This document shows, in pieces, positions 4,118 through 52,290 of a stretch of DNA of 64,000 nucleotides. Origin of the DNA: Marsupella aquatica (Eukaryota > Plantae > Marchantiophyta). The position numbers and the translations under genes are program-made. Below the pieces are notes generated by a model. That model saw only the letters and a list, made by a program, of their open reading frames with translations, was not told where the DNA came from and did not search any database. The stretch spans positions 11,484,830 to 11,548,829 of the forward strand of contig OZ316896.1 in the NCBI GenBank assembly GCA_973895155.1, written 5' to 3'. Position 1 is the first letter of the stretch. Each line of letters opens with the position of its first letter.

Positions 4118-6763
4118 ATGGAGCAGCAGAGTAGGGCAGGTCGCGATTTAGGGCGACTCGTGGGAGTCGCCCAGCAGCATTTGGAAGGCATTGGGACTAG
4201 GCTAGGGTTGTGCATGGAAGAAGGGAAGGGAAGGATATGGAGCCACATGTCTAAATTGCAGACAAGGAACCCCGAATTTGGAAGGAAGTGCCCTCCTAAA
4301 TTTGAGCAGATTGATAGAGTAGCACAATCATTGTGCACGGGGTTTTTGGGCTGGCAACGTAACCTCCAACAGATGGGAGAAGAAAGAATGGCCGATTTTT
4401 CGCAGGTTTTGATGAGAATTAGCAGACCACAAAGGCTTCAATATGCTTCCCTGTCCATGTCGTCACATGGAATTTTGTCAGAACTAGAAGCACCGAAGCC
4501 TTTGTACCAACTTGCGATGAGCACGGAGCAGGTGTCCAGGAGGCTAGATGGTGTTCCGGTGTACACTGTCAGCAACTCGGCCAACGAGTTCATTTTGATT
4601 TCGGATGTGAACAGCCAAAAGTCTTTGGGCATTTTCTGCTTCAGGCAACAGGACGCAGAATCCTTGCTTTCACAGGTGCACTATCGTTGTTAAAACGGCC
4701 AATCCATTCCGTTTAAGAAAGGGTTTGTGCAATTTTGTATATAAAATTTGAATAGTTCTTTCTGGAGAATTGTAAATTCTTGCCCTGTTAGCCTAGATGC
4801 CGGCAGGCGATAGCATGGGTCCTCTGGACAATCAACAAATTTGAAATTCGTTATGGAGCATTGTAAATTCTTCCCTGTTAGCCTAGATGCCGGCAAGATA
4901 TAGCGTGGGTCCTCTGGACAATCGGAGGTAATATGGCCAATAACCATGTTTCTGTTGAGCAGGTTCGTGACAGAGAGCCTTCGTTAGGGCGTGGGGCAAA
5001 AGTTGTTGCAGTATCACTTGATAAGGTGGAGTGCATTGAACGATCTCAAAGATGAAGATGTTGCAAATGCTTCTCAATGTTAATCACGAGTAACTCACAT
5101 TTCCAGGCTAAACGTATACTGTTGGGGAGGAATGTTAGTAAGATATAGCTTATATATTTGTATCCATTTTTTCTGAATGAAAGGCTCTTGTGGACATCAA
5201 AGATGCGAGAACACGTTTGTGTTAAATAGCTATAATTAGTCTATGAATTACAGCTGCTACCACAAGCTTCCTTCTGGGGACTCGTAATCATACTGTCGGA
5301 CTGATACTTCCTTCGATCTTTAGCTTGCCCTTGACAGTGTAGGCTTGAATCTTCGGGTGGTCCACCTGAAGACGGGTTTCCTGGCAACTAATCGGGTTAC
5401 TTGCTAAAGTTTGGGTTTGAATGCGACCTCTTACAGGTATATCAGCTCAGTACAGAAGGCATTGCGTTTAGATTCTTACCTGATCCTCGGCAGGTGAAGA
5501 ATGCCCTTGAGGTAAGTTAGGGTCCTCCTCTTCCCACTGAGTGTTTCAGCTCATATTAGTCTCTGTTTCTTTTCGATGGTCCTGGAGAGTGGACTTACTG
5601 GTGCGCCTTCTCAAAGAGATTACCTCTCTATTTTCTAAGATTAAACAAATCCAACGGGTCTGTTGTTTGGGATGCTCATCCGAAGTTGTTTTAACGTGTT
5701 GGCAGTCGAAACTAAAATCTGGGGAGACTCGAAAAGCGTTTGATGGGGTACCTGTTTTCCAGGTGCGCCAGTTGCTCATTTGTGTCAATTACTCGATCTG
5801 CAGCCAGAGAAGCTGATGATTGTCATATTTGAATAAGCTGATTATTAACAGAGCAGATAACCTTCGTTTTGTTACTCATTCAGTCAGATAACTTGATTTT
5901 AAGGAGCAATAATCGTCGCTTCTGTCCCATTTTTTTCTGCAAGGTAATACCTTTACAGAACTTCTGATCTGACCAAGTTGATTGTTGTGACAAATGACTT
6001 GATTGTGTTCTTGATCTCTTATTTCTTTATTTTTAATATGCTCTCTACTTCCAGATGTACTGCTTATGGGTTCATTTGATTCATGCAACAGGAAGATCTG
6101 GATAGGGCTCTGAGTAGAGCATTCAAGCAGCAGCAAAGAGTGAATCCAGCTTTAAAAGTAAACTCAGATATTCAGGTCAGCCACATTGACTGCCGATGTT
6201 GTTCTGGCTCAGAAGTAGGACTCTTCTAGTCTGCAGCATTAGTTGCCGCCCACATCCCCATTTGTCTTAATTTGTGCGTTCTAATTTTATCAGTTTTTCA
6301 AGGGTTGTGTGTTATTGGGAAAAGTTAGTAGGTATTGGAGTCTGAATGCCGAGTATTATGTCGGTTAGTCTAACGACATCGTACTCGAGAGGTCATTTCT
6401 CATTTATTCATTAATTGAGTCCAAGGATTGTCCTTTGTTGTTTTAATTTCAGGTGGGTAGTTTCGAGGATGTTTTAAAAAGAATGGAGGTAAGTCCTCCT
6501 CTACCAAACGCATTTGGTGTCGGTTCAGGATGTTGTCAATTTGTCCATCATGTTCACAGATATAGGAAGCCTCTCCTGGAGTTGGATGAAGTGGAGTGTA
6601 CTATGTCCAGCCGTGACTGACATGGTTTGTATTTCTTTGTCAGGGCAATGAGGAGGATACCGGATGGGGTGATATTGTGTTCATCCCTCCTGGTATAGAT
6701 GCTTTCAGTCATCTTGGAAAGGGAATTGCTCAAGGGTCAGGAAGAGAGACTGTGGTGGCCTAG
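4118..6763 (+). CDS. TIC22: Tic22-like chloroplast intermembrane-space import chaperone, 8 exons, ~350 aa
   Basis: Exons 4118-4675, 4963-5025, 5437-5511, 5706-5762, 5884-5943, 6092-6175, 6453-6488, 6644-6763. All introns are GT-AG and the total is 1053 nt in frame. Tic22 motifs: LDGVPVYTVSNSANEF, VYQLSTEGIAFRFLPDPRQVKNALE, FDGVPVFQ, WGDIVFIPPG. Likely 5'UTR intron at ~3866-4091. Confidence 0.92.
4770..4923. repeat. Two-copy ~63-bp direct repeat (period ~90) in Tic22 intron 1
   Basis: attgtaaattct(g)ccctgttagcctagatgccggca...gggtcctctggacaatc occurs at ~4770 and ~4860. Confidence 0.85.
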
Positions 6764-7704
6764 ACGGACATAGTGGATGGGAAGGTAGGTAATTTTTAAG
6801 ACACCCATGGAGACGTTCACAACAGAGACATTTGTGGTGATCATGTGAACTAGACTAATGCCCAGTCCACCGAGAGCAATTTTGTGTTGTTGATTGAAGC
6901 GCTCTGGACATGCCACGTCCGGCAGCAAAAAGTTGTTACAAGTGGATAAGAGCTGACATCATGAATTGCCTTTTGTCTGTCTAGAGAAAGTCATAGAAAC
7001 ACAGTTTTTGATCTCTAACAAACACAGCTCCAAGTCAGTTCCTAAGAGAGTGAAGTGTAGTGGCCAGCACCAAGGTGTTGTCAAAGTGTGTTTCGTTGTA
7101 AATCCAGGGTTGCTATCGTGTAGTTGCTTGTATGCTACCAGGCTGAGGTTTTATCACCTTACATTGTTCATGAAGGATCCAAGACCGTCCCATGATTTCC
7201 AGTTTCTTGTGAAACCAATCTGGGCTATCGTCACTGCTATGACTTATCTTGCCTCTTTCAAGGGTATCTTAAATATTTTCTAGAGGATGCATATCTGCGG
7301 CACCCAGGCCAAGCATAACTTCCCCGTACACAGTCGGAAAAGTTGTGTACGTGAGGTCATCGAGCCTTGCAACATCCTTTTCTAGAAGGGATGACAATTT
7401 CCTTTTCCGTTGGATCTGTAAAGTTTACAGCAACCGCTACGTTCTTGACAACCAGTTCTTCGTTTGCATCATAATGTGTTGCACTGCACTGATCTTCAGG
7501 ACCAAATTAGACAATTTGCTCGTTGTCTGGAAGAGCCGTGTCTGGAGAATGTAATATGAGTTCCTTCAATTCACATCTTTAAATAGATAAATTAGGGACC
7601 GTCTCAAGCTGCTGCTAAGTTTAGATGTGTTCTTCACTCCCACGAATGGGAGGGTCCCAGGGATCCGGTGAAGGCAGATTTATACCAGCTTCTGGATGGG
7701 CGTA

Positions 7705-8113
7705 AGCAGGAGGGGGATGTGTAGAGAGAAATTTGACCTGTGAAAGGATGGAGTAATATGCGCTTTTGTGGAATCAAATCATTTCCTCTTCGTTGGGAGC
7801 CACGAAAATTCTACACGTGAACAGGCGTAGACGACCGAGATTGGATGATGGGAGTCCAGAATAACTGTTACCAAGAGGCAACTTATGAGAAGTAAAAACG
7901 TCAAAAAAGCCAAGACAATCAATCAAAGAGATTCAAATCCCAAGGTCGGGAGGAGAATACTAAAGACTACCTGAAGACGACAAGACCCAATAAAGAAGTC
8001 CAAGATCACCTGAGACTAAGAGGAGATTGTGGGAGGAGATTACAATATCGTTGACTATAATTTCTCATCGTGCATGGAAAGCACGTGTAAAGTGTCAGTG
8101 TGTGTATACAACA
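7705..8113 (+). mobile_element. Possible LTR remnant preceded by a polypurine tract
   Basis: AGCAGGAGGGGGA is followed directly by TGTGTAGAG; the ~400-bp segment ends ...TATACAACA (TG..CA). No partner LTR or clear pol sequence seen. Confidence 0.3.
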
Positions 8114-8559
8114 TAGTCACAAAATTGTAGCCACTCATTTCACGTAAGATTCTGGCAAACAGCGGCTGAGGGGAATGTATATCATGCTTGAATTCAACGA
8201 ATCTATACTACGCTTGAATGCAGTCTTGAAAAACAACCCTGCAGCATTCCAATTCAAACCCATAGCTTTGGGTTGCATCCTTGTCAAACACTTAAATCGT
8301 AATAGCACAATGGGTGAATGAGTAGGGTAAAAGACATACCGGTAGTGACTCTCAAAAGCTTGGACACGAACCCCCAGCAGAAGATCGTTCTGCCCAATTC
8401 GCCAGCTGCTCAGGACCTCCTCCGTGGAAGAAGCATCGGCCCTTGGAAGGGATTGGTGATTCCCACAGAGCCACCCTCGTCCGAATATCCCCAATGATTT
8501 CTCGTATTTTTGGCATTGCCACCACAGGACTCATCTAGACACCCACAGATCAATGACGG

Positions 8560-9618
8560 AGGCGACTTGCGCATAAGTCATCCTCGCCATCTGTCAAGGG
8601 GGGTTCGTTTTATGCTTGAATCTTCAATTACAAATCTAATCGTATCGCCATCCAGGAAATGGAAAGGTGGAGTGGCTTCAGATCAACCTGATGCAACGTG
8701 ATTGAAAGCAGTGCTGTTAAGAGAATTGTTCTGTATTTCGAAAGAGTATCCCTCATGGAACTGGAATTAGGTGTTTAAATTTCGAAGGAGAAAGGCGTGC
8801 GGATTGGGCGAACTCCAGAAGGCGTAATCGGTTACCTCGTCGTGCCCCTTGGACTGATGGACTGATGCCGTAATTGAGTTCATTTGAGCTCGATTTGCAA
8901 CCGAGGCTTGGAGTTTTTTTCGCTTTTCATTGCATCAATGTGACGACACAATGGCCGCGATTAGTATACATGCTTTAGGCGCTGGAACTTTGGGAGCTGC
9001 GAGAAGCCTCGTACCTCATTTTCAGCCTGTGGCTCCTCCGTCTAGATCGAGCAGTACTGGAACTGAGGTTTCGTCGGTTTGTTTACTTGCGCTAGCGCCT
9101 GAATCCCGGCGTCGATTCATCAGGTACGTGTGTAAGGTCTCCAGCAATGAGAACTAAACTCATCATTTTCCACGAGTTTGTTGGAAGGAATTATGTGTCC
9201 TTCGGGAAAGACCTAATTAATATCTGAGTAGTTCACAATCAGCTCGTTTTGAGTTTCATGTGTGTAAGATTCTCAGCAACTAGAAGTAAACTCACCATCT
9301 TTCGCAAGTTTGTTGGAAAGAATTAGTTACCTTTTCGGGAAACACTGAAGTAAAATCTGAGCAGTTCGCAATCAGCTCGTTTTCAGGTTTCCCCATGAAC
9401 TCATATTCTGCTTGTTGGGCTCATACAGTGTGAACGTAAATAGTCAGAACAATGAAGTGGCGACGGCATCCATCCGGAGCGTCCCAGACCAGGTTGCACG
9501 CGAGCTTCTCAATGCTGGACACCGTTGTCCTGATGTTCGGTAAGCTTCACCTTCCGGATCTGCTTTGCGTCATGTTTCATTTCTCAAAAGCTTCATCTCG
9601 ATGAGCAGGCAAAATGAT
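8560..9618 (+). repeat. Diverged inverted copy of the rhodanese promoter, exon 1, intron 1, exon 2 and start of intron 2 (source ~36140-35160, minus strand)
   Basis: Shared MAA(I/V)SIHAL...LAPESRRRFI and NNEVATASIRSVP.QVARELLNAGHR..DVR, shared upstream ggaaaggtggagtggcttc, and shared intron start gtaagcttc..ccggatct. Similarity stops at ~9618. Confidence 0.95.
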
Positions 9619-12532
9619 AGTTTTATCCTACAACCATTTCATGTAGGTACTTGCCCGGGAACGAAACTCGCCCTCTTGGAGGTCTCTCTATGACATCACT
9701 AGCAACGCATTCCTGGGGAAAGAATGCAGGGAGTATAAGTAAGCCCACTGAGCAGCGACCAACTCTGACGAAAAGTAAGGCAACCGCTAGGGGAAGCAGC
9801 TTTGGATCAATGGATGACTTGGAGGACGATCGGCTTCAGGAACAGAGGAGGAGATCTTTGGAAGAAGACCAGCAACAGAATCTCAGGAGAGACTTACCTA
9901 GTAGTAGTAGAGCTGGCCAACCCTGGGATGGAAAATACCAGCCTGGTGCACCTGGTACAGAAGTTCTTAGAGAGGAAAAACTAATGTATGTTGATGAGGA
10001 CTCTTCCACTGCTGCAGAAGATTATAGGCGAGTTGAAGCCGACGTTAGAGTCTCGCAGGTGTTGAGAGTAGATAGAGACTTGGAGGAGACGAAGAATACT
10101 CCGCTTGTTGATATGGAAAGGAGATCTGATGAAGGAATGCCACAACCGAGATATAGGACCGATTCAAGTGGAGATTTAGTGTATCCGCCGTCTGTTGGAC
10201 GCAAGGCAAATCCTCCTGGAAGAACAAGTAGTACAAGGAGCCCAAACAGTGGCCCTTCCTCATCACGAGAAGGAGAAGGACGTTGGAGGACACAGTCAAT
10301 CAATGATTCCAGGATTGCCGATGAGGGGAGTTATCGTGGATCAAAAAATGTACGGCAATTGCTTCCGAATCCTGAGGGAGTAGTGTCCAGACGGCAAGAA
10401 AGTCGCCCAGGGAATGGAAAAGGCACGCCAGACTCCTTAGCATATACTACAACTCAACCAGAGGTGATAGAAAGTAGCTTTGCATTGGAGCAATCTAAAC
10501 AAGCTCAAACTATAAAGTTTCAGAATTACCTTGATGAAGCACAGGCTCTTCTGGAACAAGGAATGAAGGGTCTAGAGGGTAGAATAGAGGTTGCAATAGC
10601 AGAGCGCATGCTTTATGAGGCAGCAGATCTTTTGGGGAAGGCTTGTCAAATTTACCCAGCAGATTTGATTGCCGTTGGGCAGTTGGGAAATACATTGCTA
10701 GTCCATGGACAGTTGAAGCTGGAACTTAGCCAGCAACTACGCAGCATGCTTCCGTCCCCTGAAGCGAATTATCCTGTGATGAAGGGGGAGTCAGCACTAG
10801 CAAGTCGTGAGCAAGAGTCGATGGAGCTGACATTGCAGGAAGTTTGTGAAGAATGTGAGGAGCTGCTGGTGGATGCCGGCAGAAAGTTCCGCACAGCCCT
10901 GAGTTTAGACAAGAATGATGTTAGAGCACTTTATAATTGGGGGTTGGCTCTTTGTTACCGAGGACAGCTTATTGCCGAGGAGGGTGGCGAGGTTAGTGTC
11001 CTGACCGTGCTCGTTCTCTTATTGATGTCGCATACAGGGTAGCCAACGGAGATATCCAATGGTCATTCTGTCCCTGCTTGGGTACTGCTGTTTGATGTTT
11101 AGGAAGTCTTTTTCTGGCCTGGAAGTCCATACTCACACTATTTATGTTGAGTGTTTGCACGGCATACGTGGTTCTTCCAGTTGTGTTGCTACTAGTTTCA
11201 TACTTTGTCCAAGTTCTATCCATCCAGGGTTTGGGGTCTACAGCCAAGAAGCTGTCCTGTACCGTGAGGACTCTCTTAGTTACCTCTTAGAGAAGATCTG
11301 ATAGGCAGAGGTTCTTGTGTATGCAGAGGGCAAAGCAGGATGCGGACAAAGTGTACCTGGCAGCCATTGACAAATTTGAAGCCATGCTGGGCATCAGTCA
11401 GGACTACGTCTCTGGAGGTGCGTTTTCTTTGATTGTGTTTCACTGATCTTAGTGCCATGTCCTTCATAGATCCGGTTGGATTTTCTTTCAAGGATAGGTG
11501 ACTATCTTCTGTTCATTAGTGTAGTAATTCAAACGCATCAATGCAAAGTGTATCCATTTTATGCTCTGTAATTGTAATGTCTTCAGTTCAGCATCAAGTA
11601 TTTGCTGAGTGCCAATTCACAATAACACTTAGTTCTTGCCTCATTGAAAACTTGAGATGCGATCAGAGTTCATTGTCATCACCTGTCGGATAGGGAAAGT
11701 AGTTTGAAGTGGGTTTCATCATTTGATAACAACTTCATTTGATATTGAAACATAGTGGGCATTCAGTCCTAAAGATTCGATTACATTCAATGTATATCAT
11801 CGATCCCCTTTACCTAAGTTGAATGTCTTAAACAAAAATATCATATTTCCATTTAGTCAGCTGTGACAGCTACATGGATATTTGCTTTTCGTGTGCATGC
11901 CATTCACTGCCCTTTGGAAACTATGTCGATAAATCAATTTTCTTGCACCCGGAGCTTTTCCCATCCCAGCTTGTGAGATCCCAGCTTGTGTGATCCCAGC
12001 TTGTTTACAGCTTGTGAGAGACTGAGTACTGATGGGCCCACAGTCAGTCACTTAGATTCATGTGAGGTTATCAGCTGCTTCTTTCTGGTTGTTTTGATTG
12101 ATGAAGTAGAGTGAGAAGTGACAGAAGGCTTTGCCACTATAAGTGGGGTATGATGCTTCAGTGAATTATGTCGGTCCTTTCTGTTCCTTACTCTCTATAT
12201 AGTAGTATGATCATTGCATTTCTCGAAATGTTTAACAATTCTAACCAGGGCGTGGTTATTGGTGACTTACTGCAGCCCTTTTAAACTGGGGACTCGCAAT
12301 GCGAGACCGGGCTCGCCTTCGGGATATGGGAGACAAAGATCGAGTGCAGCTTTTGCTACAAGCAAAAGAACTTTTCCAGGATGCCGTGCGTTTGGATCAA
12401 AGTAATGGGCAGGCTAGAGGCGCATTGGCAGTGTGTTCTGCAGAACTGAAAGAGCTGCAGGCCTTTGATTCTCTTCAGAGAGAGGACACCAAGGAAAAAC
12501 CCAAACAAAACTGGTGGCAAAGAAGAGGCTAG
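8951..12532 (+). CDS. Chimeric TPR-repeat protein with rhodanese-derived N-terminus/transit peptide, ~658 aa
   Basis: Exons 8951-9123, 9429-9539, 9647-10991, 11327-11417, 12276-12532 total 1977 nt in frame with GT-AG junctions. C-terminal TPR-like helices: AVGQLGNTLLVHG, CEECEELLVDAGRKF, DVRALYNWGLAL, DADKVYLAAIDKF, ALLNWGLAMRDR. Confidence 0.8.
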
Positions 12533-24429: not shown

Positions 24430-24528
24430 TTATGCCCTAGAGTCGTGGTCTAGAGGCCTCACTCTAGACCACGACTCTAGGCATAATAGGCCATGGGAGC
24501 AGCTTTCAGTTGTAATTATATAGATAGA
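24430..24528 (-). mobile_element. Helitron-like 5' end with subterminal perfect hairpin
   Basis: Minus strand A|TCTATCTATATAAT begins at 24528. A 20-bp perfect stem CCTAGAGTCGTGGTCTAGAG-gcctca-CTCTAGACCACGACTCTAGG lies at 24436-24481. A related motif occurs in the opposite orientation at ~25213-25270. Confidence 0.55.
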
Positions 24529-34009: not shown

Positions 34010-35762
34010 TCAAGACTTCGAAATGGAAAGCCCGCTTTCGACCCAGGCCTTGTAGCCACCCACCATATCGGTTATGTTTGAAAACTCCTGTTGCACGCAC
34101 CATAACAATTACACTGTTAGATGTAGATCGACAATATGAATATCAAGTACTCCCATCACTAAATTGGCAAGGACAACGCTGATTTGCATTAAGACCTACA
34201 CAGATTTCCACTTTGAAGCCGTTCCAAGTAAATGGTCCAATTGCTGCTCATGAAATCTAGTGCCACCCTCTGGCGATGTGAAATCAGGAATAATAAGCCT
34301 AGGGGCTTACTGCAGCTTGGAGCTCGGCGGCTGCCATTAACGACCGGCGTCCACTTAGGCAACCCTGTAAGCCACGGCCCAACGAACGATCATTAAGCTT
34401 TGTGTCACAAATTACGATCTGACTTATGATCATGACAATGTAGCAAATCAACAACAATTCCTCGACGTAACTCTAAGAAAATAAAGCTGTCGCAAGGGCT
34501 AAAACCTTGAATTACTACCGGATCTTCAAAACGGATTTCATAGTGCATATAGGATAAATTTCAGAAATGGATAAGATTTAAAAAAACTTTGGGTATGCAG
34601 TTCGAAGCCTCAAGGTGCATGAAGACCCCGGTTGTGAGGAAAAAGATGAATCTACTACAGAAAACTGTGTTAAGATGCATGGAACAAGGTTCATCTCGAT
34701 AAACTCACTTTATAACCTCAATTCGAGAGCAACGCATCATCAGAAAGGAAAAACCGGCAGACTGCAATCGACACAATTTCTCACTTACCACGACCACCTC
34801 ATCATCCTTATCGAAGACTCGAGATATCTCCTCCAAGAAGTGCAAATTCTTAGTCATACCTGTTACGATTTCACAGACTAAATCATTCGTCACCCATTTT
34901 GCGAAGCTTGTGAGAATGGTTGAAAATTCTACAGTCCATTCTAACCTTGCCCGAAAGGAATCAAAACCACCCCAGAGCAGTACGGAAGATTTTTGAACGG
35001 ATGAGTGATGCCAGGGATTTTGAGGAAGTACCTCCGCCGGCATTTTTCAAGTATGGGACATTCACAGCTCCCTCAACATGCCCAGCGGCGAACTCCTCCG
35101 TAGTCCTGAACACATCCAAGATTGGTAAGAGCTCTTCCTGGCTAAGTACAAACATAGAATCATTTCGCCTACTCATGCCCATCAAGACGAAGCGTTGGCG
35201 AATTGAAGACATGATGCACAGTAGATCCGGATGGAGAAGCTTACCGAACATCAAGATAGCGGTGTCCAGCATTGAGGAGCTCGCGTGCAACCTGCACTGG
35301 GACGCTCCGGATGGATGCCGTCGCCACTTCATTGTTCTGCGTATTTACCTGCACACTGTAAGAGTCCGACAAGCCGAAGATGAGTCCATGCGGAAAACTC
35401 AAACCGAGCTGATTGTAAACTGCTCGGATCTTCATTGTGTTCACCGAAAGGACAATACGACGAGAGCTCGTCCGAGGAAAATCCTTCCACAACCCGCGGA
35501 AAAGATGAGTTTATTTCTCGTTGCTGAGAATCTTAGACATATACCTGATGAATCGACGGCGGGACTCAGGTGCTAGCCCAAGTAAAGAAACTGGCGAAAA
35601 TTTAGTCTCAGTGCAAGTCGATCTAGACGGAGTAGCCAGCGGCTGAAAATGCGGTACCAGGTTTCGCACAGCGCACAAACTGCCCCCGGCATTCATTCTG
35701 GAGGCCAGCAACGAAGCTCGCAATGATCCAGCGCTCAAAGCATGAATACTAACGGCGGCCAT
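34010..35762 (-). CDS. Single-domain rhodanese/sulfurtransferase (STR15/16-like) with plastid transit peptide, 201 aa
   Basis: Exons 35762-35545, 35355-35245, 35105-35032, 34859-34789, 34364-34311, 34087-34010 total 606 nt in frame. Motifs: YLDVRTTEEFAAGH, active-site loop GCLSGRRS, GGYKAWVESGL. Confidence 0.93.
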
Positions 35763-36154
35763 AATGTCGTCAAATTGATGCCACGAAAAACGAAAAAGGC
35801 TCCCAACCCTCAATTATTCCAGACCGAGCTCAGACGAACCCAATTACAGCACCAGTCGATCGCAAGGGGCGCGATGAGCTAATCGACCAACAAAGCTACG
35901 CCTTCTGGAGTTCGCCCGATCTCTCCCACTTTCCCCTTCGAAATGTCAATACCTAACCGAGATATATCAATTCTATCAACAGCAGAGCTTTCAATCACGT
36001 TGCATCAGGTTGATCAGAGCTCAGAAGCCACTCCACCTTTCCATCTCCCGGATGGCGATCCGATCAGATTTATAATTGCAGATTGAAGCAAGCCCGGACC
36101 GAATTCCCCCCTTGACAGATAGCGATGATCACCGCTGCGCAAGACGCCGAATCC

Positions 36155-38030: not shown

Positions 38031-38088
38031 CATACAGATTCATAGATTGGCTGTTTGTGGTTGCCCTTCTGCAGCGTGATTTAGATTA

Positions 38089-40112: not shown

Positions 40113-40500
40113 ATGGCTATGGCGGCAGCAGCGCAGGCTCTTGTTTGCGCGGCGTCGTCGTGCAGCAGCAGCAGGAGCCACAATGGAGTCATCTCGCCAT
40201 CCTCCTCACGCACAGCACGAGGAGAGGAGAGGACTAGTATGAGCTCAAGATCGGACTTCCTAGGAGCCAAAAATGGCTGCGTCATCTCGCTGCCTCGGAG
40301 ATCTAAGACCACCGGTTGCGAGTCTATGGCTGTCGAGGCCGCGCTGAGCCGGGAGAAAAAGGCCACGGTCGAGAAAGCGAGGCAGCAGCTGGAAGGAGCG
40401 CAACTTGTAGCCGGAATCAAGTATAGCGGTCTCACAGTGACCCTATTGCAGACATTAAGGAAATCTCTGCCTGAAACTCAGACTCTTATCGAGAAAGCAG
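40113..40500 (+). CDS. RPL10: Truncated plastid ribosomal protein L10 fragment (transit peptide plus first ~50 aa); candidate first exon of Psb27-H2
   Basis: Ser/Ala-rich cTP, then ALSREKKATVEKARQQLEGAQLVAGIKYSGLTVTLLQTLRKSLPET (L10 N-terminus). It stops before the conserved KNTL motif; donor CAG|GTTAAG at 40500. Confidence 0.8.
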
Positions 40501-40599
40501 GTTAAGCGCCTCAATAATACACTCCGCCTCACAGCTTTCTGCATTTTGCAAGTGTTCAATTTGAGTAAACAATGATGGGAACCGCCAATTGTCAACCAT

Positions 40600-40830
40600 T
40601 CTTACAATGGACTGTAGAATTGTCAACCATTCTTACAAGCTTCGCATTGTGGGTGACTAATCATTTAATCTGTGGAACCTTAACAGGTATGACCAAGAAT
40701 TTGCACTTCTTGGAGGAGGTAGCGCGAGTCTTCGATGATGAAGTGGTCGTGGTAAGTGAGAAAATGTGTCGCTTGCAGTCTGCGGGTTTTTCCGCTCTGA
40801 TGATGCGATGTTCTCGAAATTGAGGTTTTA
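40600..40830 (+). repeat. Inverted copy of rhodanese exon 4 with flanking intron sequence (source ~34940-34710, minus strand)
   Basis: taacag|GTATGAC(C/T)AAGAATTTGCACTTCTTGGAGGAG...GTGGTCGTG|gtaagtgag is present in both copies; exon length 65 nt here versus 71 nt in the source. Confidence 0.93.
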
Positions 40831-41488
40831 ATGTATCTATGTGCTATTGTTTCAAGATTTTGTTCAATCTCCGGTTTTTGGTGTCCTCTTGCTTCAACCT
40901 CAAATAGTAACAGATGCTTTCACTTTGAGTTGCTCAATGTGGAATTTACCATTAGAGGAGGGTAGTTCACAGGCTGGAAGACAGGTTTTTGTGCTGGTTG
41001 TAACTTCCACACTAACGCCTTCGACTTTAAGCTTGCCAAGCACTCACTTTCTTTTCCGTACATGAAATCGTTACTTGAGCTGATCCAATTTCTTCATTGT
41101 GACCCTGTACTTATTAATTGGTACTTAGTTGTCCATCGCTTTAGTTTACACAGAAAGGTTAGGAAACTCGTTCTTGAAGTTCTATCTCCTGAAGGAAAGA
41201 GAGGTCAATCATCTCAGCTGGGACCCATGCTCTACTGAACTTTCTACATGCTTGCCCAATATTTGGTATGATGCTTCCTTATGAGGAATTACACTTCAGT
41301 CGCGGATGGAGGGACGCTAGACTCGTAGGGCAATTTCTTTCTAAAAGTTGCTGTAAACACTGTAGGTGGAAAATAGGGTGACAAGCCTCTGTGATGATCT
41401 CCTGAAAATTAGAATTAATCACATCCTTCTCTTCCGTCAGGCTGATAAATAAGGTGATGAATTGATGGTATTGAATGTTCTGCAGTAG

Positions 41489-42274
41489 CAGATTCAGCAG
41501 CAGGAAAGACAAATCGGACGTCGCCAAGCTTTGGCCACAATGTTGGTGCTCTGCAGTGTCCCCATCGTGCTTACACAGATGCCAGGCAACCTCTTAGCAG
41601 CTGAAGAAGCCAAGAAGGAAGCTGAGAACAATGACCAGAGCGTCTTGGGGGGCCTTCTCTCGTTATTCGATCCCAACGAGACAACCAAGCAGGGGAAGAA
41701 ATTGCCAAAGGCCTATTTGAAGAGTGCAAGGGATGTGGTGCAAACTCTACGAGCATCCTTCTCTGAGGACTCTCAAAATGATGCTAAGTTCCGTAGGAAT
41801 GCTGACTCTGCGAAGGGAGCAATTCGGGAGTACATATCCAATTGGAGGGGGACCAAGCTTGTTGATGCTGAGGTGAGCTTTGAACATTTTCCAACCTGTG
41901 ACATGCTTTTCTAAAATTGTTTTTACATCGGATGGGGTGAAGAGTCAAATAATAACCATACCATCCAGTGTAATAATGTTACGCTTTGGTCCTCCTGGAT
42001 TGAATATTGGATACGCTCATCCACTGGTATTTAACAATGGCACCAATTCAAGCCATAGTGCTGCGCAAGATTTGTGAAGTACAAGGATTCTATGATGATG
42101 TACGTTTTCAGCTGACCATTTCTTCTGAATGACCAGGACTCGTACGAAGCTTTGGAGAGAGTTTTGCGTGGTTTGAGTGAATTTTATTCAAAAAAGGGCC
42201 CGAGCGCAGTGCTTCCTGAGGATGTGCGGGCTCGTATTCTCGAGGATCTCCAGAAAGCTGATGATGCTCTGTGA
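41489..42274 (+). CDS. PSB27-H2: Psb27-H2 / LPA19 photosystem II D1-processing factor (Tat signal plus mature domain)
   Basis: Exons ~41489-41872 and 42137-42274. Twin-Arg GRRQAL plus hydrophobic stretch, SLFDPNETTKQGKKLPKAYLKSARDVV, KFRRNADSAK.AIREYISNWRG, FYSKKGPSAVLPEDV. Upstream exons predicted at 40113-40500 and 40687-40751. Confidence 0.92.
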
Positions 42275-43948
42275 CTGAAAAACCAAGTTCCTGCGTCTGA
42301 CAGCTACCTGGCCTGTACATCACAATGTTTGGAGATGCGCAAGGATAAAGAGAATCTGCAAATGCAAGAGAGAATGAGCTCTAACCTTTCTGGTATACTT
42401 TAAGAAGTTTCAGAGTCTTAAAAGAAAACTGGTAGCCGCACTTCAAAGCGCATGCAGTTGGGGTGCCCCTGAACAGGTTTAGAATTTCTAGTTTAGATCG
42501 CTCTTGTGCAGCCTATCAGGACTTCAGATGGTGTTTTCCTACGACACCTTGGCAATTTGAGCGATAATCACAAAGCTGATGTAGAATCGTATCCCATTGG
42601 ATGTAGATTTCTTCGAAATCAATGTAAGGTTTCTTTAGTGGACGCGTTGGTGCCCGGACATCTTTGTGGATTGTCTTTGTATCAATTCTTTCATCAGGAA
42701 GCATTTGCTGTACTTGTTACCTGGAGAGTGTGTTTACATAGTAATTCAATCCAGGAGGGGAGACGCAAATCAGATGAGTTGTAATTCCTATGGCTGTAAT
42801 TTGTATGTCAATGCCTAGACTACGGATCTTACAAGCCTAGAAGAAAGTTCAGGTTGGTTAAAGTTCTTACGTGCATGAAGCCTAGACGAAGGTCTCACCA
42901 AACCCACCCCAAGTCCGCTCCACTCATTCCCCCAATTTAATAGATACTCGGTAGAGACATCTAGGTCTAAACCAAATCCAGCAAAAAACCATTCCCACAT
43001 GTCTACGAACTCATGGTGTGTTTCAAACGATAATTGCCTGCGCAAATTTTTCTTATCTTTCGAATAAGGACCAAATTTTGCAAAAGAACTCTCACATGGA
43101 CCCCACATCACAGGGAGGTGCATTTCGGGTTGCATGTATGTTGAGCCTAGAAGTCAACAGGACTAAGAGTAAGATGGAAGCGATTCACCGGCATCCCACC
43201 AGCTCATAGCACTCGAGTAGCAATAGTGCCCCAACCATTAGGTCACTTTCCAAGTCAGCAAAAAGATCCTCAATCTCTCCGTAGTTTCAAAGGGGATCAC
43301 CCAACTTTGTAATCCGGATTTGCCTTTCCCCGATAGATTAATTACCAATGGAGCTAAATCCACCGTCGGGCAACAACCAAGCCTTTCGTTGAACGACAAC
43401 TATTTACCTGCGTTTTCCTAGAATTTACATGAAACTAGTAGCTACATGATTGTACGAATACGCATGCACACACTGGAGCTTTACACGTGCGTACCATGCA
43501 CAACTAGAAAAAATTATTCACTTGCTTGTAACCTCCTCCTACATCTCCTCTTCGTGTCACAGGTGTTCTTGGATTCCTTAATTTGATATTTTCCGGGTGA
43601 GGTGGTAGTCCTGAGTACATGCTCCTGCCGGCTCTGGGATTTGGGGCTTGTTACTCATTATCAGTTTTCTTTTTCTTTTTTGGGGGCAACTGAGAGGCTG
43701 CTATAATTAGAAACTCTCTGCAAACTCTTCATAAGTTGTCTTTTCTTTACTTCTCATAAGTTGACTCTTGCTTCCGGGCGTTTCTGAATTTCTTTAGCTC
43801 CCAGAGAAGAGCAAGTGATTGATAGAACAAAAGCGCATCTTACTTCATCGTTTCCCAGATCAGACTACTCTCTATACATCCCACCTTGGCCCCATTGAGA
43901 AGCTCGTATCATGTATAATAAATCGACCTTAAGCAGATGCAAGGACAT

Positions 43949-44115
43949 AGCGCTTCCATCAACAACACAATTCCTCTCAATGGAGTGCGCAATAGTTCAC
44001 ATGATCACTAAAATTTGTCACTTGTGAACCTACATTGGTGTCTTAATACCTTTCCCTGCGCCATGTAACTCGAGGACACCAGCATCTCTCTTCCTGACCC
44101 TTCAGCAATTCCCTT
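43949..44115 (-). repeat. Diverged inverted copy of the Tic22 last-exon end and 3'UTR (source 6719-6903)
   Basis: Minus strand aagggaattgctgaagggtcaggaagagag...taagacacc...gtgatcatgtgaacta...tgtgttgttgatggaagcgct is collinear with 6719-6903. Confidence 0.88.
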
Positions 44116-44489
44116 CTTCCTACTAAATGGAGCACTCTAATGTTTGCAAAACAAACCTGTTGAACCAGAGTTCAAGAGGAGAAATATGAATTGTAGCCCT
44201 TTTAACACGGGCCAAAATTTGTCGTCTTCAGTATACAAAATTTACAGAAGAGAGGAGATTACTTCCTTCAACTTTCCTACTATTTCTTTCTGCATCACAT
44301 GATAGTGGGCTATGGCATGTCCTGCTCGACTCTTAACGAGCTTGCACATTACTTCCATCACCCTCTGGTCAACATAACAAGGTGTCAATAACTGTACAAA
44401 CTCTTAGATCATTTATCAGAAAAGATTAGCAAGAGTACAGTACATAGAATAAGTTGTTGACGACTGGGCAATGATTAAAACGCATCATC

Positions 44490-47400
44490 TCACTGGCCTA
44501 TTCTCCAACCATCATGCGTCCCGGAGTGACTTTTGGAGATACCTTCCATGGTCGCTGCTTGTCTGATGAAGATACCATCATCATCACGGACCCACAAGAC
44601 ATGATCATGTATAAATGAAGTGAGCTCGGCTTCTGACTGACTGGAAGCTGAGCCCTCAACTTCCCTGGCTCCTGGTTTTGCGTTGACACCTTCCGGACTA
44701 TCTTTCTGTTTCACCTGTTCATAGAAGTCGAACTTTCTTGATGACCTTTTCACCCAGTCACCATCTACTGGCTTTTGACCTTCCATCGGCATATGCCCTG
44801 ACGAACTCATCCCGCCTGTGCCTGCAGAATATAGATCCCCTATAGGAGAGGTTCCCCTTCGATGATCACGATTTTTACCCTTCCAAGAATCAACGATGGC
44901 ACTCTTTGACATCGTACTCACGTAGCTACCGTCACTTGTGCTCACTTCCTCCTGATCCCTTTGTTCACCTGTATTCCTACCCTCTGGATTTCTCCAGTCA
45001 TCTTGGAATGGCCTTTGGGCCCCTCTTTGACGCGGCTGATAACCAGCAGCCTGCAGCTCAGAGCTCTTACTGTCCACACTGTTCAGTGATACCCAGGATG
45101 GATACAGGGATGCCCTTCGACCCCTGGGAGTTTCATCTCGACCCCGATGGCCTTGAAATTGATTCATCTCCGAATTGATCAGATCATTCGTATCGTATCT
45201 ACTTCCTACAGAACTTGTCGAATCGCTTTTCGTCCCATTCTTTGATAGGTGTGAAAGGATATTCAGATCTTGCCTGCTATCCCCTGGAACCAAATGGCCA
45301 GATAACTGATTGTTGCCTCGATTGCTACCTGAAGTTTGTTTTGTTTCGGACAAAACATCGTCTTCCAAGGGGGTCCTCCACCACTTTCCGTTTTCTGGCG
45401 GATAACTCTCTCTGCTCGATTGTCCTTCCTCAGGCGAGACGCCGGCCTCATAGTTTCCTTTCCTTTCGCTAGAATCTGCTACCTTCTTATCTTTGGACAC
45501 AAATTCCTTCAGTCCAGACATCCTTGCATTGACAGAGTCCCGGAAGGAGTCAAAACTTTCAGACAGAGTTGGAGCCCCTCGTTTCATGTCTCCCCTGGAC
45601 CTTATATCAGATGAAACAATGGGAGGATCTCGATTGGGAGCTTTACTCGCGGGCCTGTCTTTCCTTGAAGAAACCCGGGCCCTTCCTAGACGGTAGGCCA
45701 CGAACATGAAGAAAGACCAGATGGTGAAAACACCTATCGCCCGCTGTAAGCCAGTGAATGCAGCTACTTTCTTGATAATGTCTTGTGCAAATTCCACAAA
45801 ATTTAAAGGGCTGGATGGTTGAGGTTCTTCCACGATTTGACCACCGACTCTCTGACTCCATTCTGCCCAAAGTAGGCTCGTTAAATCTTCTTCTTCTCGA
45901 GATCCTTCTTTCACAATTTCATCTGCAGCACTTTTACCGCTAATATCAGACGAATCCGACTTGCTTTGCACAGGCATATCCCCAGCAGTATTTCCTGTTG
46001 TCGGTGGAACCGTGGATGGTGAATTCCCACCTCTCAATCTTTCTTGGGATTCAAACAATTGGGTATCACTTGATATCTTCCCCTCATTTCCTTTTTCTAT
46101 TGACAAGTCTTTACCCTGTTGCTGCTGATCGTTTGCCGTCTCAGAGAGCTTCTGGGTTTCCTTCTCATCCACTTGCCCATTTTTTGTTGCCTGAGGAAGG
46201 GTGAGCCCGCCACCAGTCCCCTCACGAGCCTCACCTTGAACATTAGCTCGCTGTGATTCAGAAGCCATGTTTCTTTCCTTGGCCTCTTTTCTAGAGTTAG
46301 TATCAAGTTCTTGAGTGGCAGGAACCTTCTGCTCACTAGTCCTCTCAGCAGCCTTCGTCTCAATCTGCCTCTTCTCGTTTTGAATGACCAAATCCTTTGG
46401 ACGAACTGCTTCATTGACGACACCATTTTGAGGACTGAGAGACGACCCGCTAGCTTTGAGAAGCTGCTGAAGAATATCAACGAGTTCCTCATCAGTCATC
46501 TCCCTGAATCTGCAGGCAGCCCGAAACGCGAACATAGAACATATGGACTTCAGAACAGGATTGGTTTACTCATGGCAAGCCATGTTCATTTTTGGTCCTT
46601 GTCCTACTTAGCCCAGCTGGAGTACACATTCTATATCAAGCGTTGGTGTCTATTTCTCTCGTCACAAGTGCAAGTAAAAATTACAACTGAGATAGGCACC
46701 AGAGTATTGGAGTGAATATGTAGTCTGCATGGCCCAAGGACGACATGAACCACTATGGCTTGCCATGATCAGATATCTACATCAAATTTCAATACTGTAC
46801 AGATTCACACTCGGTCACTTCGAGGTCCCAAGTTACTGCGTTCTTTAGAATTACCCCAGAGATGATCCAATGGGAGGCCTACCAAAGATGAATCTGAAGG
46901 TAGCCTTTCAGGGTCAAACCTCGGAATCAACATCTGCCCATGGACTAATTTGATGAAAATTCCAGTGACGTTCCATGCTGAATACTGCTGGTCCACTAAG
47001 TGTTTTTCTAGATAACACCTTAGAAGTTATCCCACCATCAGTCCATGCCCTTGCTGACCCAGTAATTTTGTTCTAATGCATCAATCTAAGAACCTTGGAG
47101 CTTTCCATACTACTCCCGTATGGCAGACCAGGGTGAGCTGCTCTAATTCCAAGATAGAAGTTCACAAAGAGGTCTGCCGATGACATCTCTAGCAATGCAT
47201 TAATGAACCTTGCTGTCCGTTAGACTCTAGTTTGTTACTCTGAACTACTCAGATCTCTGGTTCATATGAGGGCCACGTTCGAAAGATTACTATAGCAACA
47301 TGGGAGACGGAGCAGTGCAATGTGTATAGTTTGCACACCCGCGCTATCGTTGCCACAACTGTTCATAGTTGGCAGAACAAACAAAAGCAAAGAAGAAGAT

Positions 47401-48521
47401 CTATCCTAACAGAAATATGAGAGAGTTTATACCTACGAGCAAGCTGCTTAGCAAGGATGGCTTCCACGGAAGGTGCACTGTCCACAGCCACCTCCATCTG
47501 GACACCAACTTCTGATAGCGCATTTTGTGGTACTTCTGCATATGCTGGTTGACCACCAAACACAGCACTCAACGAAAGCGCTACTGCTGCAACACTAACA
47601 ATCAACCCATGTCAGCCAAATTCAATCTTACCTGGAAAACAGCTTTCAGTACCAAATGTCAAGCATTTCCTCACATGGTGTAGCACAGAATCAATCATGT
47701 GAATTCATAAAGAGGTGTCTTGAAACGATATCAATTGACCTAGAGTTCTGATCTATGACAATGAAACACAACCATCATTTGGCCTTGTCCGCACCCTGTA
47801 TTCGTATCAATCTGGTAAATTTGTACCTGCTGTCTTTGTTACGTATTTTATTGCAGAAATGGGTTTTCCCAGTGCTTTTGTAAGTCTGTGAACAGCGTCC
47901 TTGATATAGAAACTATGACACGCCTTGGAAGCCCAGAGGTAAAACTCAGGTCCTGTGTATATTGCGGTGGAGGTGTCCACGCATAATGAGGACTGCTTCA
48001 CTTGAGAGTTGACGATCTAAAAGCCACTGGGTGGATAGCATGTTAGTGCTACTCCGTGGTTTCCCAAGAAGCGAGAGCAACTTATGTGGTGTGGGTTGCT
48101 TTAGTCGTATCGTGGCGTTTGGGTCGATAGATTTCCAGTTGGTCGGAGTTCCTGGGCTCTAATCTCTGGAGTGTATCATTGCAACTATGCAGGAGCCGAG
48201 GGGTCCTTTATTTTCCCTTTGTCAGTTATTTCGTCCGAATTGATTGACTATCTGATCCATAAATTCTAGATCAAGCATCATTCTCTCGCAGACCACAGGG
48301 GAAAGCTCCTGTTGCACGACCACTTCTACTGCAGTAAACACGAATTCCGGAAACCCACCTGAAATGGACAAAATGGGGGAACGGCACCGGACAGTACTCG
48401 AATCTCTCAAAGAGCAGTCGCTATGGCCTCCGATCGAGACGCACACCTGGGTTGCAGCCGTCTGCCGCGCAGCGACGGGTCCGAGAGCAGCACGGACGAT
48501 CGTAGCTGAAACCGCGGCCAT
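44490..48521 (-). CDS. ~812-aa protein: cTP-like N-terminus, one TM region, long disordered charged tail, no recognisable C-terminal domain
   Basis: Predicted exons 48521-48447, 48016-47827, 47586-47433, 46509-44490 total 2439 nt in frame with GT-AG junctions. The last exon is a 2-kb open frame; TM segment AIGVFTIWSFFMFVAYRLG. Confidence 0.72.
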
Positions 48522-48669
48522 CTCCAACAACAACTCCAGCGAATTGAGAAGTCCCAGCCCCTGCTCCGCTGTTGTTGGCCGAATGCAAAGCCTCCTCGCT
48601 CGGCTGATTCGCTTTCTACTACAGTCGTAGTGTGCGCGCACACATTTCGCAACTTTTCCTCTCGTGCAG

Positions 48670-49210
48670 CTACCGAGGTTACCGAGGTGCTCTGCGATTA
48701 CAGTGTACTAGCCTGATTACCCGTTAATGAACGTAAACCGAGATTACCGAAGTGCTCTGCAATTAGAGTGTACTAGCCTGACTTCCCGTTCACGAACGTA
48801 AACCGAGGTTACCGAGGTGCTCTGCGATTACAGTGTACTAGCCTGACTACCCGTTCAGGAACGTAAACTGCAGTTACTGAGGTGCTCTGCCGTTACAGAC
48901 CGAGGTACTCCGCCATTACAGCATACTAGCCTGATTACCCGTTAATGAAAGTAAACCGAGGTTACCGAGGTGCTCTGAGATTACAGTGTACTAGCCTGAT
49001 TACCCATTCATGAACGTAAAAATAGAGAAGAGAAAATTATAGTGTACTAGCCTGATGAGCGTAAATAGAGAAAAGACAAAGTGATGTAAATAGTGTGATT
49101 ACCCGACATAAGACCAAAGTACCAGTTTCCTGCCTGGTTACCTGCTCATGAACATATATAGAGATAAGATAAAATTACTTCGTACTAGCCTAATTACCCC
49201 TTCATGAACA
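48670..49210. repeat. Tandem array of ~65-bp units, degenerating to the right
   Basis: accgaggttaccgaggtgctctgcgattacagtgtactagcctgattacccgttaatgaacgtaa starts at ~48672, 48737, 48802, 48867 and 48956, followed by partial units. Confidence 0.93.
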
Positions 49211-50369: not shown

Positions 50370-50750
50370 CTAGCCCTGACTACCGTTCTTGAACATGAAT
50401 AACGTGGAGTCAATAAAAATGTCACCAAAATATATTCCTTATTCACATTTTTTGAATGTTGACGAAATGATTAAAAAATATATCATGCATATCATCATTT
50501 TAATAATCATACACAACATACCATATTCTTGCTATACACATCCTTCTTTCTATGCACATATGTTATGGTGGGGCCACATAGCTCATTCTTTAATGTAAAT
50601 AAAAATCATGACAAAAAGCATATATCATTATCATTTGATATATATATCATAGTCATGAGTTTTTCATCCACATGATGCACATGTAATTAAGTACTTTACT
50701 CTATAAACCTAGACCCCAACTCTAGCTTGTAGTTGGCTCTTTATAAGTAA
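50370..50750 (-). mobile_element. Second, more degenerate copy of the 38089-38508 Helitron-like element
   Basis: Shares ctag...gactaccgttcttgaac, ctatgcacatatgtt.tggtgg.gcca and catagtcatg with the first copy. Another A|TCTATCTATCTAC 5'-type end occurs at ~50999. Confidence 0.6.
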
Positions 50751-51384
50751 AATGAGCCCTATGCTCATGCATTGCACGAGGCAAGGAGGGCCGGTCCATA
50801 GGGAATCAGGCTGGGTCATTTATGGGGCAACATGGAGAAACACGTATGAGCTAGGGGTGCCTATTTCTTCTATCAATGGTCAAGGAAAATAGCAAATTGA
50901 ATCCAATGGCTGTGGATCTTTTCCACCCATGAGCTTTTTTGTATTGGGACTAAAGAAAAAAAGAGGCTAAATGCCTTATTATAGTTGTAGATAGATAGAT
51001 ATTTTTCTCTAGATATATATCACAGTGCCCAAGGGCAAAAATGTCGAACTGGGAAACAAAATCCCAAAGGCAAAGGGGAGGAAAAGAGGGGAAAGGGTAA
51101 TTGAGTTCATTGAATCACCAGAAGGGTCGGTAGGTCCCACCTGCCACACTTGCTGTACATGTAAGCAAACCGCGTTTCCAGTGTAAGCGTTGAAAGTTTC
51201 CGAAGCAAGTTTCCGAAGCAAGTTTCAGAGGAAGGATCGCGTATTGGCGTTGCGTTCGGGAACCTTCGCAAACCAACTCATCACGCGCACCTCTCGACTT
51301 CTCGAGAGCCAATTCGTCACAATCACCAGACAAACTTCGATGCTCTCGGCGAAATGTGCTTGCTCGCAATCACCATATATATAC

Positions 51385-51935
51385 TAAGTCGGTGCTCTAA
51401 ACGGAATGTGCTTGCTGCCAATTCGACGCAATCTTCATAAAATGTAAACTCTGTGCTAGACGGAACTTGCTTGCTGCCAATTCGACACAATCATCATACA
51501 AATACAAACGCGGTGCTCTAGACGGAACTTGCTTGCTGCCAATTCGACACAATCGTCATACAAATACAAACTCGGTGCTCTAGACGGAACTTGCTTGCTG
51601 CCAATTCGACACAATCGTCATACAGATACAAACGCGGTGCTCTAGACGGAACTTGCTTGCTGCCAATTCGACATAATCATCATACAAATACAAACGGAAC
51701 TTGCTTGCTAGCAATTCGACACAATCATCATACAAATACAAACGTGGTGCTCTAGACTTAATGTGCTCGCTACCGATTCAACACAATCATCATACATTTA
51801 AAAACGCGGTGCTCTAGGCGTTGCTGCCAAAAATTCGACACAATCAGTATACAATTACAGACGCGGGGGGAATGTGCTTGCTGCCAATTCGACACAAGCA
51901 TCATACAAATAGAAACGCGCTGCTCTAGGCGGAAT
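51385..51935. repeat. Tandem array of ~9 x ~61-bp units
   Basis: cggtgctctagacggaacttgcttgctgccaattcgacacaatc(a/g)tcatacaaatacaaa repeats head-to-tail with no unique spacers. Confidence 0.95.
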
Positions 51936-51959
51936 GTGATTGCTGGGGCTGAGATTGGC

Positions 51960-52290
51960 GTACACAACAGTAGTAGCAAGAGAATCAGTCGAGCGACGAG
52001 GCTTTGCATTCGGCCTAGAAGAGCTGAGCAGAGCAGAGCAGGGTCGCGACTCTATTATCATTGCGTTGGAGCTGTTGTTTTTGGAGAAATGGGCGTGGAT
52101 TCAGCTACAATCGTTGGTGCTGTTGCGGTGAGGATGTCGATCGGAGGCGATAGCGAGTGCTCTTTGAGAGATTTGAGGACTGTTCGTTGCCGTTCCCCCG
52201 TTTCTCCTATGTCAGGTGGGTGTCCGGTGTTCGTATGTACGGTAGTAGAAGTGGTCATTCAAGAGAAACTTTTCTGTGGTTTGCGTGACA
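51960..52290 (+). repeat. Inverted copy of the 5'UTR/first exon/intron start of the minus-strand gene (~48635-48280)
   Basis: Parallel translations KRISRA(R/T)RLCIRP, SATIV, SIGG.S.CSLRD..TVRCRSP, SGG.P.FV.T.VEVV.Q in both copies. Confidence 0.92.

Follow-up and report, generated by a model that had tools for sequence, protein, structure and literature searches.

The window analysed here comprises 64,000 nucleotides of gene-dense nuclear DNA of the liverwort Marsupella aquatica (GenBank assembly GCA_973895155.1, contig OZ316896.1, positions 11,484,830 to 11,548,829 of the forward strand) and holds ten genes, among them those for Tic22, a TPR-like protein, a tetraspanin, a rhodanese (sulfurtransferase), Psb27-H2, an uncharacterised liverwort protein with a predicted plastid location (gene G), RNF113A and two tandem GT92-family glycosyltransferases, besides a putative O-acetyltransferase-like gene at about 16.4-22.6 kb. 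Judged by its sequence, the host is a leafy liverwort with Calypogeia fissa as the closest annotated relative; the RNF113A protein is 89% identical to that of Calypogeia fissa (the best named match), 73% to that of Marchantia and 71-72% to that of Riccia. Four diverged pairs of duplicated DNA, here called A to D with their partners A' to D', lie in inverted orientation in this stretch (Table 1), and they adjoin four conserved genes, of which the TPR-like gene, RNF113A and gene G are truncated and Psb27-H2 is startless.

Table 1. Genes, gene fragments and duplicated segments of the locus (positions count from the first letter of the window)
Feature	Position	Strand	Description
Tic22 gene	4025..6763	+	intact, native-type C-terminal tail; Pfam Tic22
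A	6719..8216	+	last 14 codons, 3' untranslated region and downstream DNA of Tic22; source of A'
B	8561..9683	+	copied rhodanese promoter region, exon 1 (8951-9123), intron 1, exon 2 (9429-9539), intron 2
TPR-like body	9647..12532	+	exons 9647-10991, 11327-11417, 12276-12532; C-terminal half only
Rhodanese (sulfurtransferase) gene	34010..36148	-	intact, six coding exons from ATG 35762; Pfam Rhodanese and gene model
B'	36148-35112		part of rhodanese gene; donor of B
C'	34944-34679		part of rhodanese gene, exon 4 at 34859-34789; donor of C
uL10c 5' fragment	40113..40500	+	transit-peptide-like start and first half of L10 domain; phase-1 donor
C	40602..40868	+	copied rhodanese exon 4 (40687-40751) with intron flanks
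RING-H2-like fragment	41282..41479	-	degenerate, directly upstream of first Psb27-H2 exon; weak family evidence
Psb27-H2/LPA19 body	41489..42274	+	exons 41489-41872, 42137-42274; Pfam PSII_Pbs27; twin-arginine lumen signal
A'	43378..44115	-	inverted copy of Tic22 3' end, behind broken end of gene G
Gene G body	44243..47599	-	residues 122-798 of 889-residue Calypogeia fissa orthologue; predicted stop 44490; model including start 48521-44490
D' and intron	47897..48670	-	promoter-like region; exon 48521-48359 (54 codons, phase 1), predicted to be the first of gene G
D	51919..52316	+	related to D' in inverted orientation; exon 52089-52215 (42 codons, phase 1), predicted to be the first of RNF113A
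Repeat-family piece	52342..52445	+	direct match to 47827-47886; between D and RNF113A body
RNF113A (Cwc24-like CCCH/RING) body	52471..53613	+	from residue 14 of Calypogeia fissa protein; 14-residue head absent
Pair A, match	6719-6906/44115-43946	inverted	E 7e-28
Pair A, further collinear blocks	7682-7811/43909-43786 and 7934-8159/43643-43414	inverted	full span of pair ~6719-8216/44115-43378
Pair B, match	8561-9607/36148-35176	inverted	two pieces, E 2e-97 and 4e-81; extends to 9683/35112
Pair C, match	34707-34944/40834-40602	inverted	86%, E 1e-75; extends to 40868/34679
Pair D, match	48270-48628/52302-51964	inverted	E 9e-46; extends to 51919-52316/48670-48257

The four diverged inverted pairs, which had been proposed in a sequence-only reading of the window, were all recovered by self-blastn with expectation values (E) from 7e-28 to 2e-97, and extension of their edges by local alignment lengthened them, with two additional collinear blocks in pair A that the earlier reading had missed. 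Identity between copies amounts to 0.75-0.89 outside exons and 0.82-0.92 within exons. The length differences of 45, 0, 6 and 36 (30+6) nucleotides between the copied coding exons are, as that reading had stated, frame-preserving, and the splice sites are retained: the junctions 9539>9647, 40500>40687, 40751>41489 and 52215>52475 are all of the GT..AG type, with predicted spliced models open for 658, 324 and 356 codons to the stop. Pairs A, B and C are non-repetitive inverted duplications of less than about 2 kb, further copies of which were not seen in contigs; pair D is repetitive.

The arrangement was compared with contigs of four runs from two studies, all of them runs not on record as RNA. 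X1 or X2 may be the source of the assembly, whereas X3 and X4, from the second study, show about 1 difference per 100 bases to the window. Unbroken contigs bridge junction 8561 in X1, 9683 in X1, X2, X3 and X4, 40602 and 40868 in X1, 43378 in X1 and X2 (the pieces listed for the second study do not include it), 44115 in X1, X3 and X4, and 51919-51964 in X2. Because the copies differ from each other and contigs of two studies bridge most junctions, misassembly, already disfavoured in the earlier reading, does not explain the copies. That the whole is an artefact of assembly would be compatible with the junction of D to RNF113A (52316-52471), which is not among the contig pieces listed, and with the C junctions, bridged in X1 only, but copies about 18 bases in 100 apart outside exons and the bridging of 9683 and 44115 in other genotypes of the second study make such an artefact exceedingly improbable.

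The TPR-like gene starts within homology to the middle of its orthologues. Homology begins at 9714, equivalent to residue 639 of the 1181-residue Calypogeia fissa orthologue, of which residues 639-1181 match at 72-94% and residues 1-638 find nothing (orthologues measure 1228-1229 residues in Marchantia and 1152-1192 in Riccia); four pieces of the missing N-terminal half left no remnant in the window, where 2, 7, 5 and 5 of 12 shuffles scored as well. The break falls within an exon, and it is the copied rhodanese intron that gave rise to the new acceptor at 9646. Copy B is the likely new start and transit peptide of this gene, as predicted from the open spliced frame: besides a promoter, it would supply the rhodanese transit peptide which would send a shortened, soluble TPR protein, devoid of its membrane anchor, to the plastid. 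The lost half carries the native start and the hydrophobic segments, and a shortened form is plausible because the Sphagnum orthologue (740 residues) is also without hydrophobic segments. A single contig of flat depth represents the gene in X1, with no second copy at 85% likeness. Within intron 1 of B, at 9128-9389, there is an internal tandem duplication of 132 bases which the rhodanese parent lacks. Between A and B, an exon-like open stretch (8138-8560, minus strand) with a donor near 8336 is likely another gene fragment; no Pfam match was found for 8138-8530 and no PDB match under E 0.2 for 8339-8452, and a diverged version of 8402-8439 occurs at another place in the genome. Over 9625-12916, X3 is identical to the window on three contigs, while being about 1% different at Tic22 and B, and X4 differs here; the X3 and X4 genotypes look recombinant, and the two organism labels may stand for one species or close kin.

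The body of Psb27-H2 begins after a stop, and no in-frame ATG precedes its twin-arginine signal. The DNA upstream includes foreign pieces, namely the fragment of the plastid ribosomal protein gene uL10c, which covers Pfam L10 positions 4-46 of 100 and residues 47-103 of the 232 residues of spinach uL10c, the copied rhodanese exon C, and the RING-H2-like fragment (Pfam zf-RING_2, E 0.0011 among 196 stretches; the Atlas value of 0.88 is a lead only). Variant contigs at 40289-40359 indicate other copies of the uL10c fragment outside the stretch, as do those at 41027-41217 and 41402-41415 for the RING-like region. Exon C turns phase 1 into phase 0, and the chain from L10 through C to Psb27-H2 is open only with C; the region 40752-41488 offers 17 candidates running from an ATG to a phase-0 GT, none of which is transit-peptide-like by eye. 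The L10 fragment and C form the only convincing predicted start chain of Psb27-H2. In this chain, the L10 transit peptide would import Psb27-H2, exon C would mend the frame, and cleavage of the lumen signal would remove all borrowed residues and leave a normal mature protein, so that the fusion would be cheap. In X1 the gene occupies a single contig of flat depth, with no second copy at 90%.

Gene G has lost both ends. A search of 1.84 billion representatives returned three matches, the best of which is the 889-residue Calypogeia fissa protein; neither its residues 1-121 nor 830-889 left a trace in the window above shuffled controls, and at 44362-44243 a decayed last exon (residues 793-829, with a stop) is found. 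Motifs in the last, C-terminal part recur in all three liverwort matches, though the window lacks residues 830-889. A tblastn match of the native N-terminus at 32635-32820 was rejected with 15 of 40 shuffles as good, and a match of residues 830-889 with 10 of 40; gene G was also considered as the N-terminal half that the TPR gene has lost, and this was rejected because it does not match that half and has an orthologue of its own. There was no Pfam match, and the Atlas search gave no usable one. In X1 it lies on a single contig of 5638 bases, with flat depth and without a second copy at 90%. Its predicted first exon in D' shows no likeness to the N-termini of three gene G orthologues (47-278 of 300 shuffles were as good) and would provide promoter, start codon, donor and a transit-peptide-like start. 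Behind the broken end, A', read in the Tic22 sense, would supply a Tic22-type 3' end that could terminate the transcript.

A comparable situation is met on the other side of this interval, where the headless RNF113A would obtain its promoter, start codon and donor from D. Variants of D' at 48474-48494 occur on 12-35 distinct contigs per run (copy-number readings are counts of distinct contigs and not summed contig depth), and by these contig counts D and D' belong to a dispersed family, each of them capping one of a pair of headless genes that face one another. The repeat-family piece between D and the RNF113A body is likewise found on 10-24 variant contigs at 52342; its alignment scores 51 compared with a maximum of 30 in 100 shuffles. 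A D-like head is found in none of 121 RNF113A matches. D is 12 residues shorter than D' and has four acidic residues versus two, which may weaken plastid targeting. The earlier reading had placed each copy where a neighbouring gene otherwise lacks a start or an end; this holds, yet it holds likewise for D' (48257-48670), which that reading had taken for the donor. The genome contains a second, very similar copy of RNF113A, seen as two contigs at 52931 in X1 and collapsed into one around 52931 in X3; these copies are far closer to each other than D is to D', as after a recent duplication or conversion. On one Calypogeia fissa scaffold gene G and RNF113A lie four accession numbers apart, and because of this linkage the locus is old; the TPR gene of that species sits on other scaffolds.

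An earlier head of RNF113A may have left a trace at A'. For the 14-residue head of the Calypogeia fissa protein, the best six-frame match in the window is at 44063-44110 on the plus strand, five bases away from where A' ends; the RNF113A body shares this strand and follows 8.4 kb later. The match holds a stop, and on the opposite strand the same bases correspond to the Tic22 tail in A. As good a match was obtained anywhere in 4 of 3069 shuffles and near a junction in none of 3069, with the match being picked after the fact from a list of weak matches, and the heads of eight other plant RNF113A orthologues do not match at 44063-44110. Tentatively, and with slightly less than even confidence, we consider that RNF113A took an inverted copy of the Tic22 end as its head before the lineages of this plant and Calypogeia separated, and that this head ceased to function once gene G lay in between. 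The main rival is chance, a serious if somewhat less probable explanation of this match. Conversely, A might be the own old 5' end of RNF113A and the Tic22 tail the borrowed part, which is now rather doubtful, because moss-like Tic22 proteins end in the same kind of tail: the Tic22 exons are collinear with moss-like metagenome loci whose proteins end alike (four of seven loci reach the last exon), and just 3 of 4757 stop-terminated 4-mers of the window, the tail itself included, fit the moss tail as well. RNF113A would possibly have been re-headed twice, first by the inverted Tic22 3' copy, which Calypogeia fissa would still use, and later by D.

Whether such chimeras are maintained can be approached from the divergence of the copies. 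Of 1538 aligned bases outside exons, 278 (about 18 in 100) differ between the copies. The suggested tests of indel phase and of the ratio of nonsynonymous to synonymous divergence (dN/dS) gave unequal answers: 37 of 49 indels outside exons break the frame and none of the four in copied exons does, which supports keeping of the frame, whereas the pooled proportions of nonsynonymous and synonymous differences (pN 0.115 versus pS 0.276), significant and equivalent to a dN/dS below 1, are not decisive for constraint on the copies because the parent lineage alone would lower this ratio. Neutral simulations in which the copy branch receives half of the divergence seen outside exons leave the frame, ATG and splice signals of all four copied exons intact in 18 of 20000 cases; their indel rate is taken from gap-friendly alignments and may overstate decay. 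The copied exons thus look likely to be selected. Synonymous divergence (dS) of single exons ranges from 0.12 to 0.46, of the order of the synonymous distance (Ks) of 0.35 between Calypogeia fissa and Solenostoma, dated to about 70 million years in the available text of the source (10.1101/2025.04.01.646537), so that the events would be roughly tens of millions of years old.

The contig counts point to the TPR gene, gene G and Psb27-H2 as sole copies, in which the patch would have replaced an old start and added no gene. The opposite possibility, that the chimeras are silent or dispensable debris with the working genes located elsewhere, is in line with the further copies of RNF113A and L10, with the decayed last exon of gene G and with a Drosophila hotspot, most fragments of which are described as short-lived in the accessible part of the report (10.1101/2025.10.28.685065). 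It is very unlikely in view of the long open frames in all four bodies, the exclusively frame-preserving indels, the scarcity of simulations with intact exons and the lack of second TPR, G or Psb27-H2 contigs, the more so as loss of Psb27-H2 lowers photosystem II activity in Arabidopsis, according to the seen portion of PMC4754418.

Taken together, four conserved genes have become truncated or startless and are joined in frame to copies of other DNA, which probably reflects copy-and-paste repair of repeated breaks from nearby and distant templates, with the chimeras likely kept as working, spliced genes. We infer that the copying was templated repair by strand invasion or template switching, with or without inversion of the intervening DNA, and that the chimeras would be transcribed and translated. 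Within 46 kb the end of Tic22, two rhodanese pieces, L10, the RING-like piece, the D family and 8402-8439 have been assembled, of which L10, the RING-like piece, 8402-8439 and D have copies outside the stretches compared. Patching of broken genes by their neighbours, as first proposed, is supported in part, in that TPR, RNF113A and gene G are truncated and the copied exons keep frame and signals, and would have to be widened since some pieces (L10, RING-like, D family) also came from outside.

The cause originally named, repeated inversions by staggered breaks, fares less well. Such inversions leave short inverted duplications, 46 bp-1.9 kb in Drosophila according to the accessible text of PMC1885836, and in our own reading of that source the model expects one old neighbour for each copy and the other gene half at the partner breakpoint. 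In this view each pair would mark where one inversion began and ended, and a gene severed at the blunt end would have taken over the duplicated piece. The four dispersed gene-derived pairs are indeed all inverted and, with 0.27-1.5 kb, within the Drosophila range, A and B are nested, and the succession of A', the opposite-strand gene G and RNF113A is consistent with an inversion having divided RNF113A behind codon 13-14 and severed the end of gene G. One old neighbour is compatible with A and B, but C' keeps both of its native neighbours; as it is exon 4 of an intact rhodanese gene with exons 3 and 5 both adjoining, C was copied out. Residues 1-638 of TPR and 1-121 and 830-889 of G are not in the window, where only the RNF113A head may have left a trace, at A'; later deletion could explain the missing halves. 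D belongs to a dispersed family and is native to neither host, and the L10 and RING-like pieces are from outside. Serial staggered-break inversions as the cause are therefore unlikely, and templated repair fits better, as it accounts for the intact parent of C', the missing gene halves, the dispersed D and the outside fragments, with inversions possibly accompanying some events.

Capture of promoters and exons by transposons of the Pack-MULE, CACTA or Helitron type, in plants a documented process (PMC3445842, in its available part), would be suggested by the 12-35 variant contigs per run of the D' region, by high-copy AT-rich repeats at 38088-38490 and 50411-50750 and by tandem arrays just upstream of B', D' and D; D', the interval and D may even be one element with outward-reading ends. 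However, Pfam profiles run over the 196 intergenic open stretches of at least 62 residues returned two matches, the RING-like fragment and a sub-threshold DUF3258 taken as chance, and no transposase, helicase or reverse-transcriptase family. The array next to D has no likeness to the one next to D', the outer piece 52379-52445 and its match at 47827-47886 run in direct rather than inverted orientation, and many dispersed copies are a property of D only and not of A, B and C. Transposon capture is hence quite unlikely as the general explanation.

Several points weigh against templated repair and working chimeras nonetheless. In-frame methionines at 9690 and 52513 could start TPR and RNF113A, respectively, without any borrowed codon, it is awkward that a nuclear splicing factor should carry a first exon of the plastid type, and this RNF113A may be dispensable because of its second, near-identical copy. 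The loss of the Psb27-H2 start is deduced from the missing ATG and the foreign upstream DNA, and the Calypogeia fissa N-termini are those of automatic gene models. The single-copy reading derives from filtered contigs, with X1 read whole at likeness cut-offs of 85-90%, at which paralogues of greater age could escape notice. The case for the mechanism is one of exclusion, and the junctions are too old to show microhomology.

Among known systems, the exon-shuffling hotspots of Drosophila affinis ('tinkering loci'; 10.1101/2025.10.28.685065, as far as its accessible text describes them) are the closest, since a small region gathers gene fragments with parental intron or intergenic flanks, which are rearranged and form composite open frames. 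In the liverwort the copies are older (about 18% apart compared with 90-99% identity in the fly) and their donors mostly local and inverted, and while the fly composites are new genes with long-read transcripts, those of the liverwort appear to be sole copies of conserved genes and are predicted from genomic sequence. With regard to outgroups, the proteins of Calypogeia fissa, Marchantia and Riccia are without B- or D-like heads; with regard to transposon richness and fast turnover, dispersed repeats are present, the intergenic open stretches yielded no transposon protein family, and the arrangement is common to the genotypes seen. The staggered-break duplications of Drosophila (PMC1885836, available part) resemble the liverwort pairs as short, diverged, inverted genic copies of similar sizes with reuse of breakpoints, but several of those copies are decayed where the liverwort ones are in-frame exons; one liverwort parent moreover keeps both neighbours, no reciprocal halves were found, and one of the pairs belongs to a dispersed repeat family.

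In plants, filler DNA inserted by synthesis-dependent strand annealing moves genes, and as here the repair copies gene-containing DNA and leaves the donor intact; the cases in the seen portion of that paper concern whole genes and pseudogenes in cereals and not the repeated in-frame re-capping of resident genes (PMC3445842). Borrowing of transit peptides by exon shuffling, as presented in the available text of PMC7456531, equally reuses the targeting exon of one gene in another. Known borrowings re-address proteins, whereas the liverwort proteins, which had an existing start, apparently get a replacement, three to four times within 45 kb. The transfer of rpl32 reportedly proceeded by fusion to the transit peptide of another gene. 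The D family could act similarly to the primate core duplicons LCR16a/NPIP, with a dispersed transcribed core, mosaic duplication blocks and gene fusions (PMC7419210, accessible part), unlike which D is under 1 kb and its driving role is hypothetical. A literature search, with most subscription papers outside its coverage, found no such case in a liverwort. Distinctive here seem to be the density (four of ten genes) and the fact that three patched genes are seemingly sole copies.

Further features of the window include tandem arrays just upstream of gene starts, at 28914-30161 (tetraspanin), 36160-36703 (rhodanese), 48672-49020 (D') and 51367-51938 (D), which are mutually unrelated, with units of 216, 172, 65 and 62 bp, respectively; copy B of the rhodanese start is without an array. 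A high-copy AT-rich dispersed repeat with a short terminal hairpin, a non-autonomous element with up to 51 variant contigs at one site, is found at 38088-38535 and 50411-50753, its hairpin also at 24430-24486, and a short inverted AT-rich match (26407-26560/49621-49460) is probably a repeat remnant. The GT92-family glycosyltransferases at 56731-57821 and 60268-61418 form a direct tandem pair; each has a single long open frame, and the two are 79% identical.

Spare copies are usually regarded as the material of gene fusion. In this plant the patches would have needed to function immediately, because a second copy was not seen for three of the four genes concerned and the main generation is haploid. 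A wider and more speculative extension, to which we give limited credence, is that this lineage re-caps broken single-copy genes, with a dispersed promoter-plus-first-exon cassette, the D family of likely tens of copies, serving as a reusable gene head genome-wide, and with RNF113A having taken the antisense Tic22 3' copy and later D. If transcripts confirm the chimeras, the locus would offer a compact test of the exchange of promoters, transit peptides and 3' ends among conserved genes, and Psb27-H2 would show how a frame-adaptor exon and cleavage after import hide the seam. It would be a plant counterpart to the exon-shuffling hotspots of flies, with Calypogeia fissa as a public outgroup genome. 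Were the re-capping reading true, conserved genes would routinely exchange promoters and targeting exons while the host gene itself stays unduplicated.

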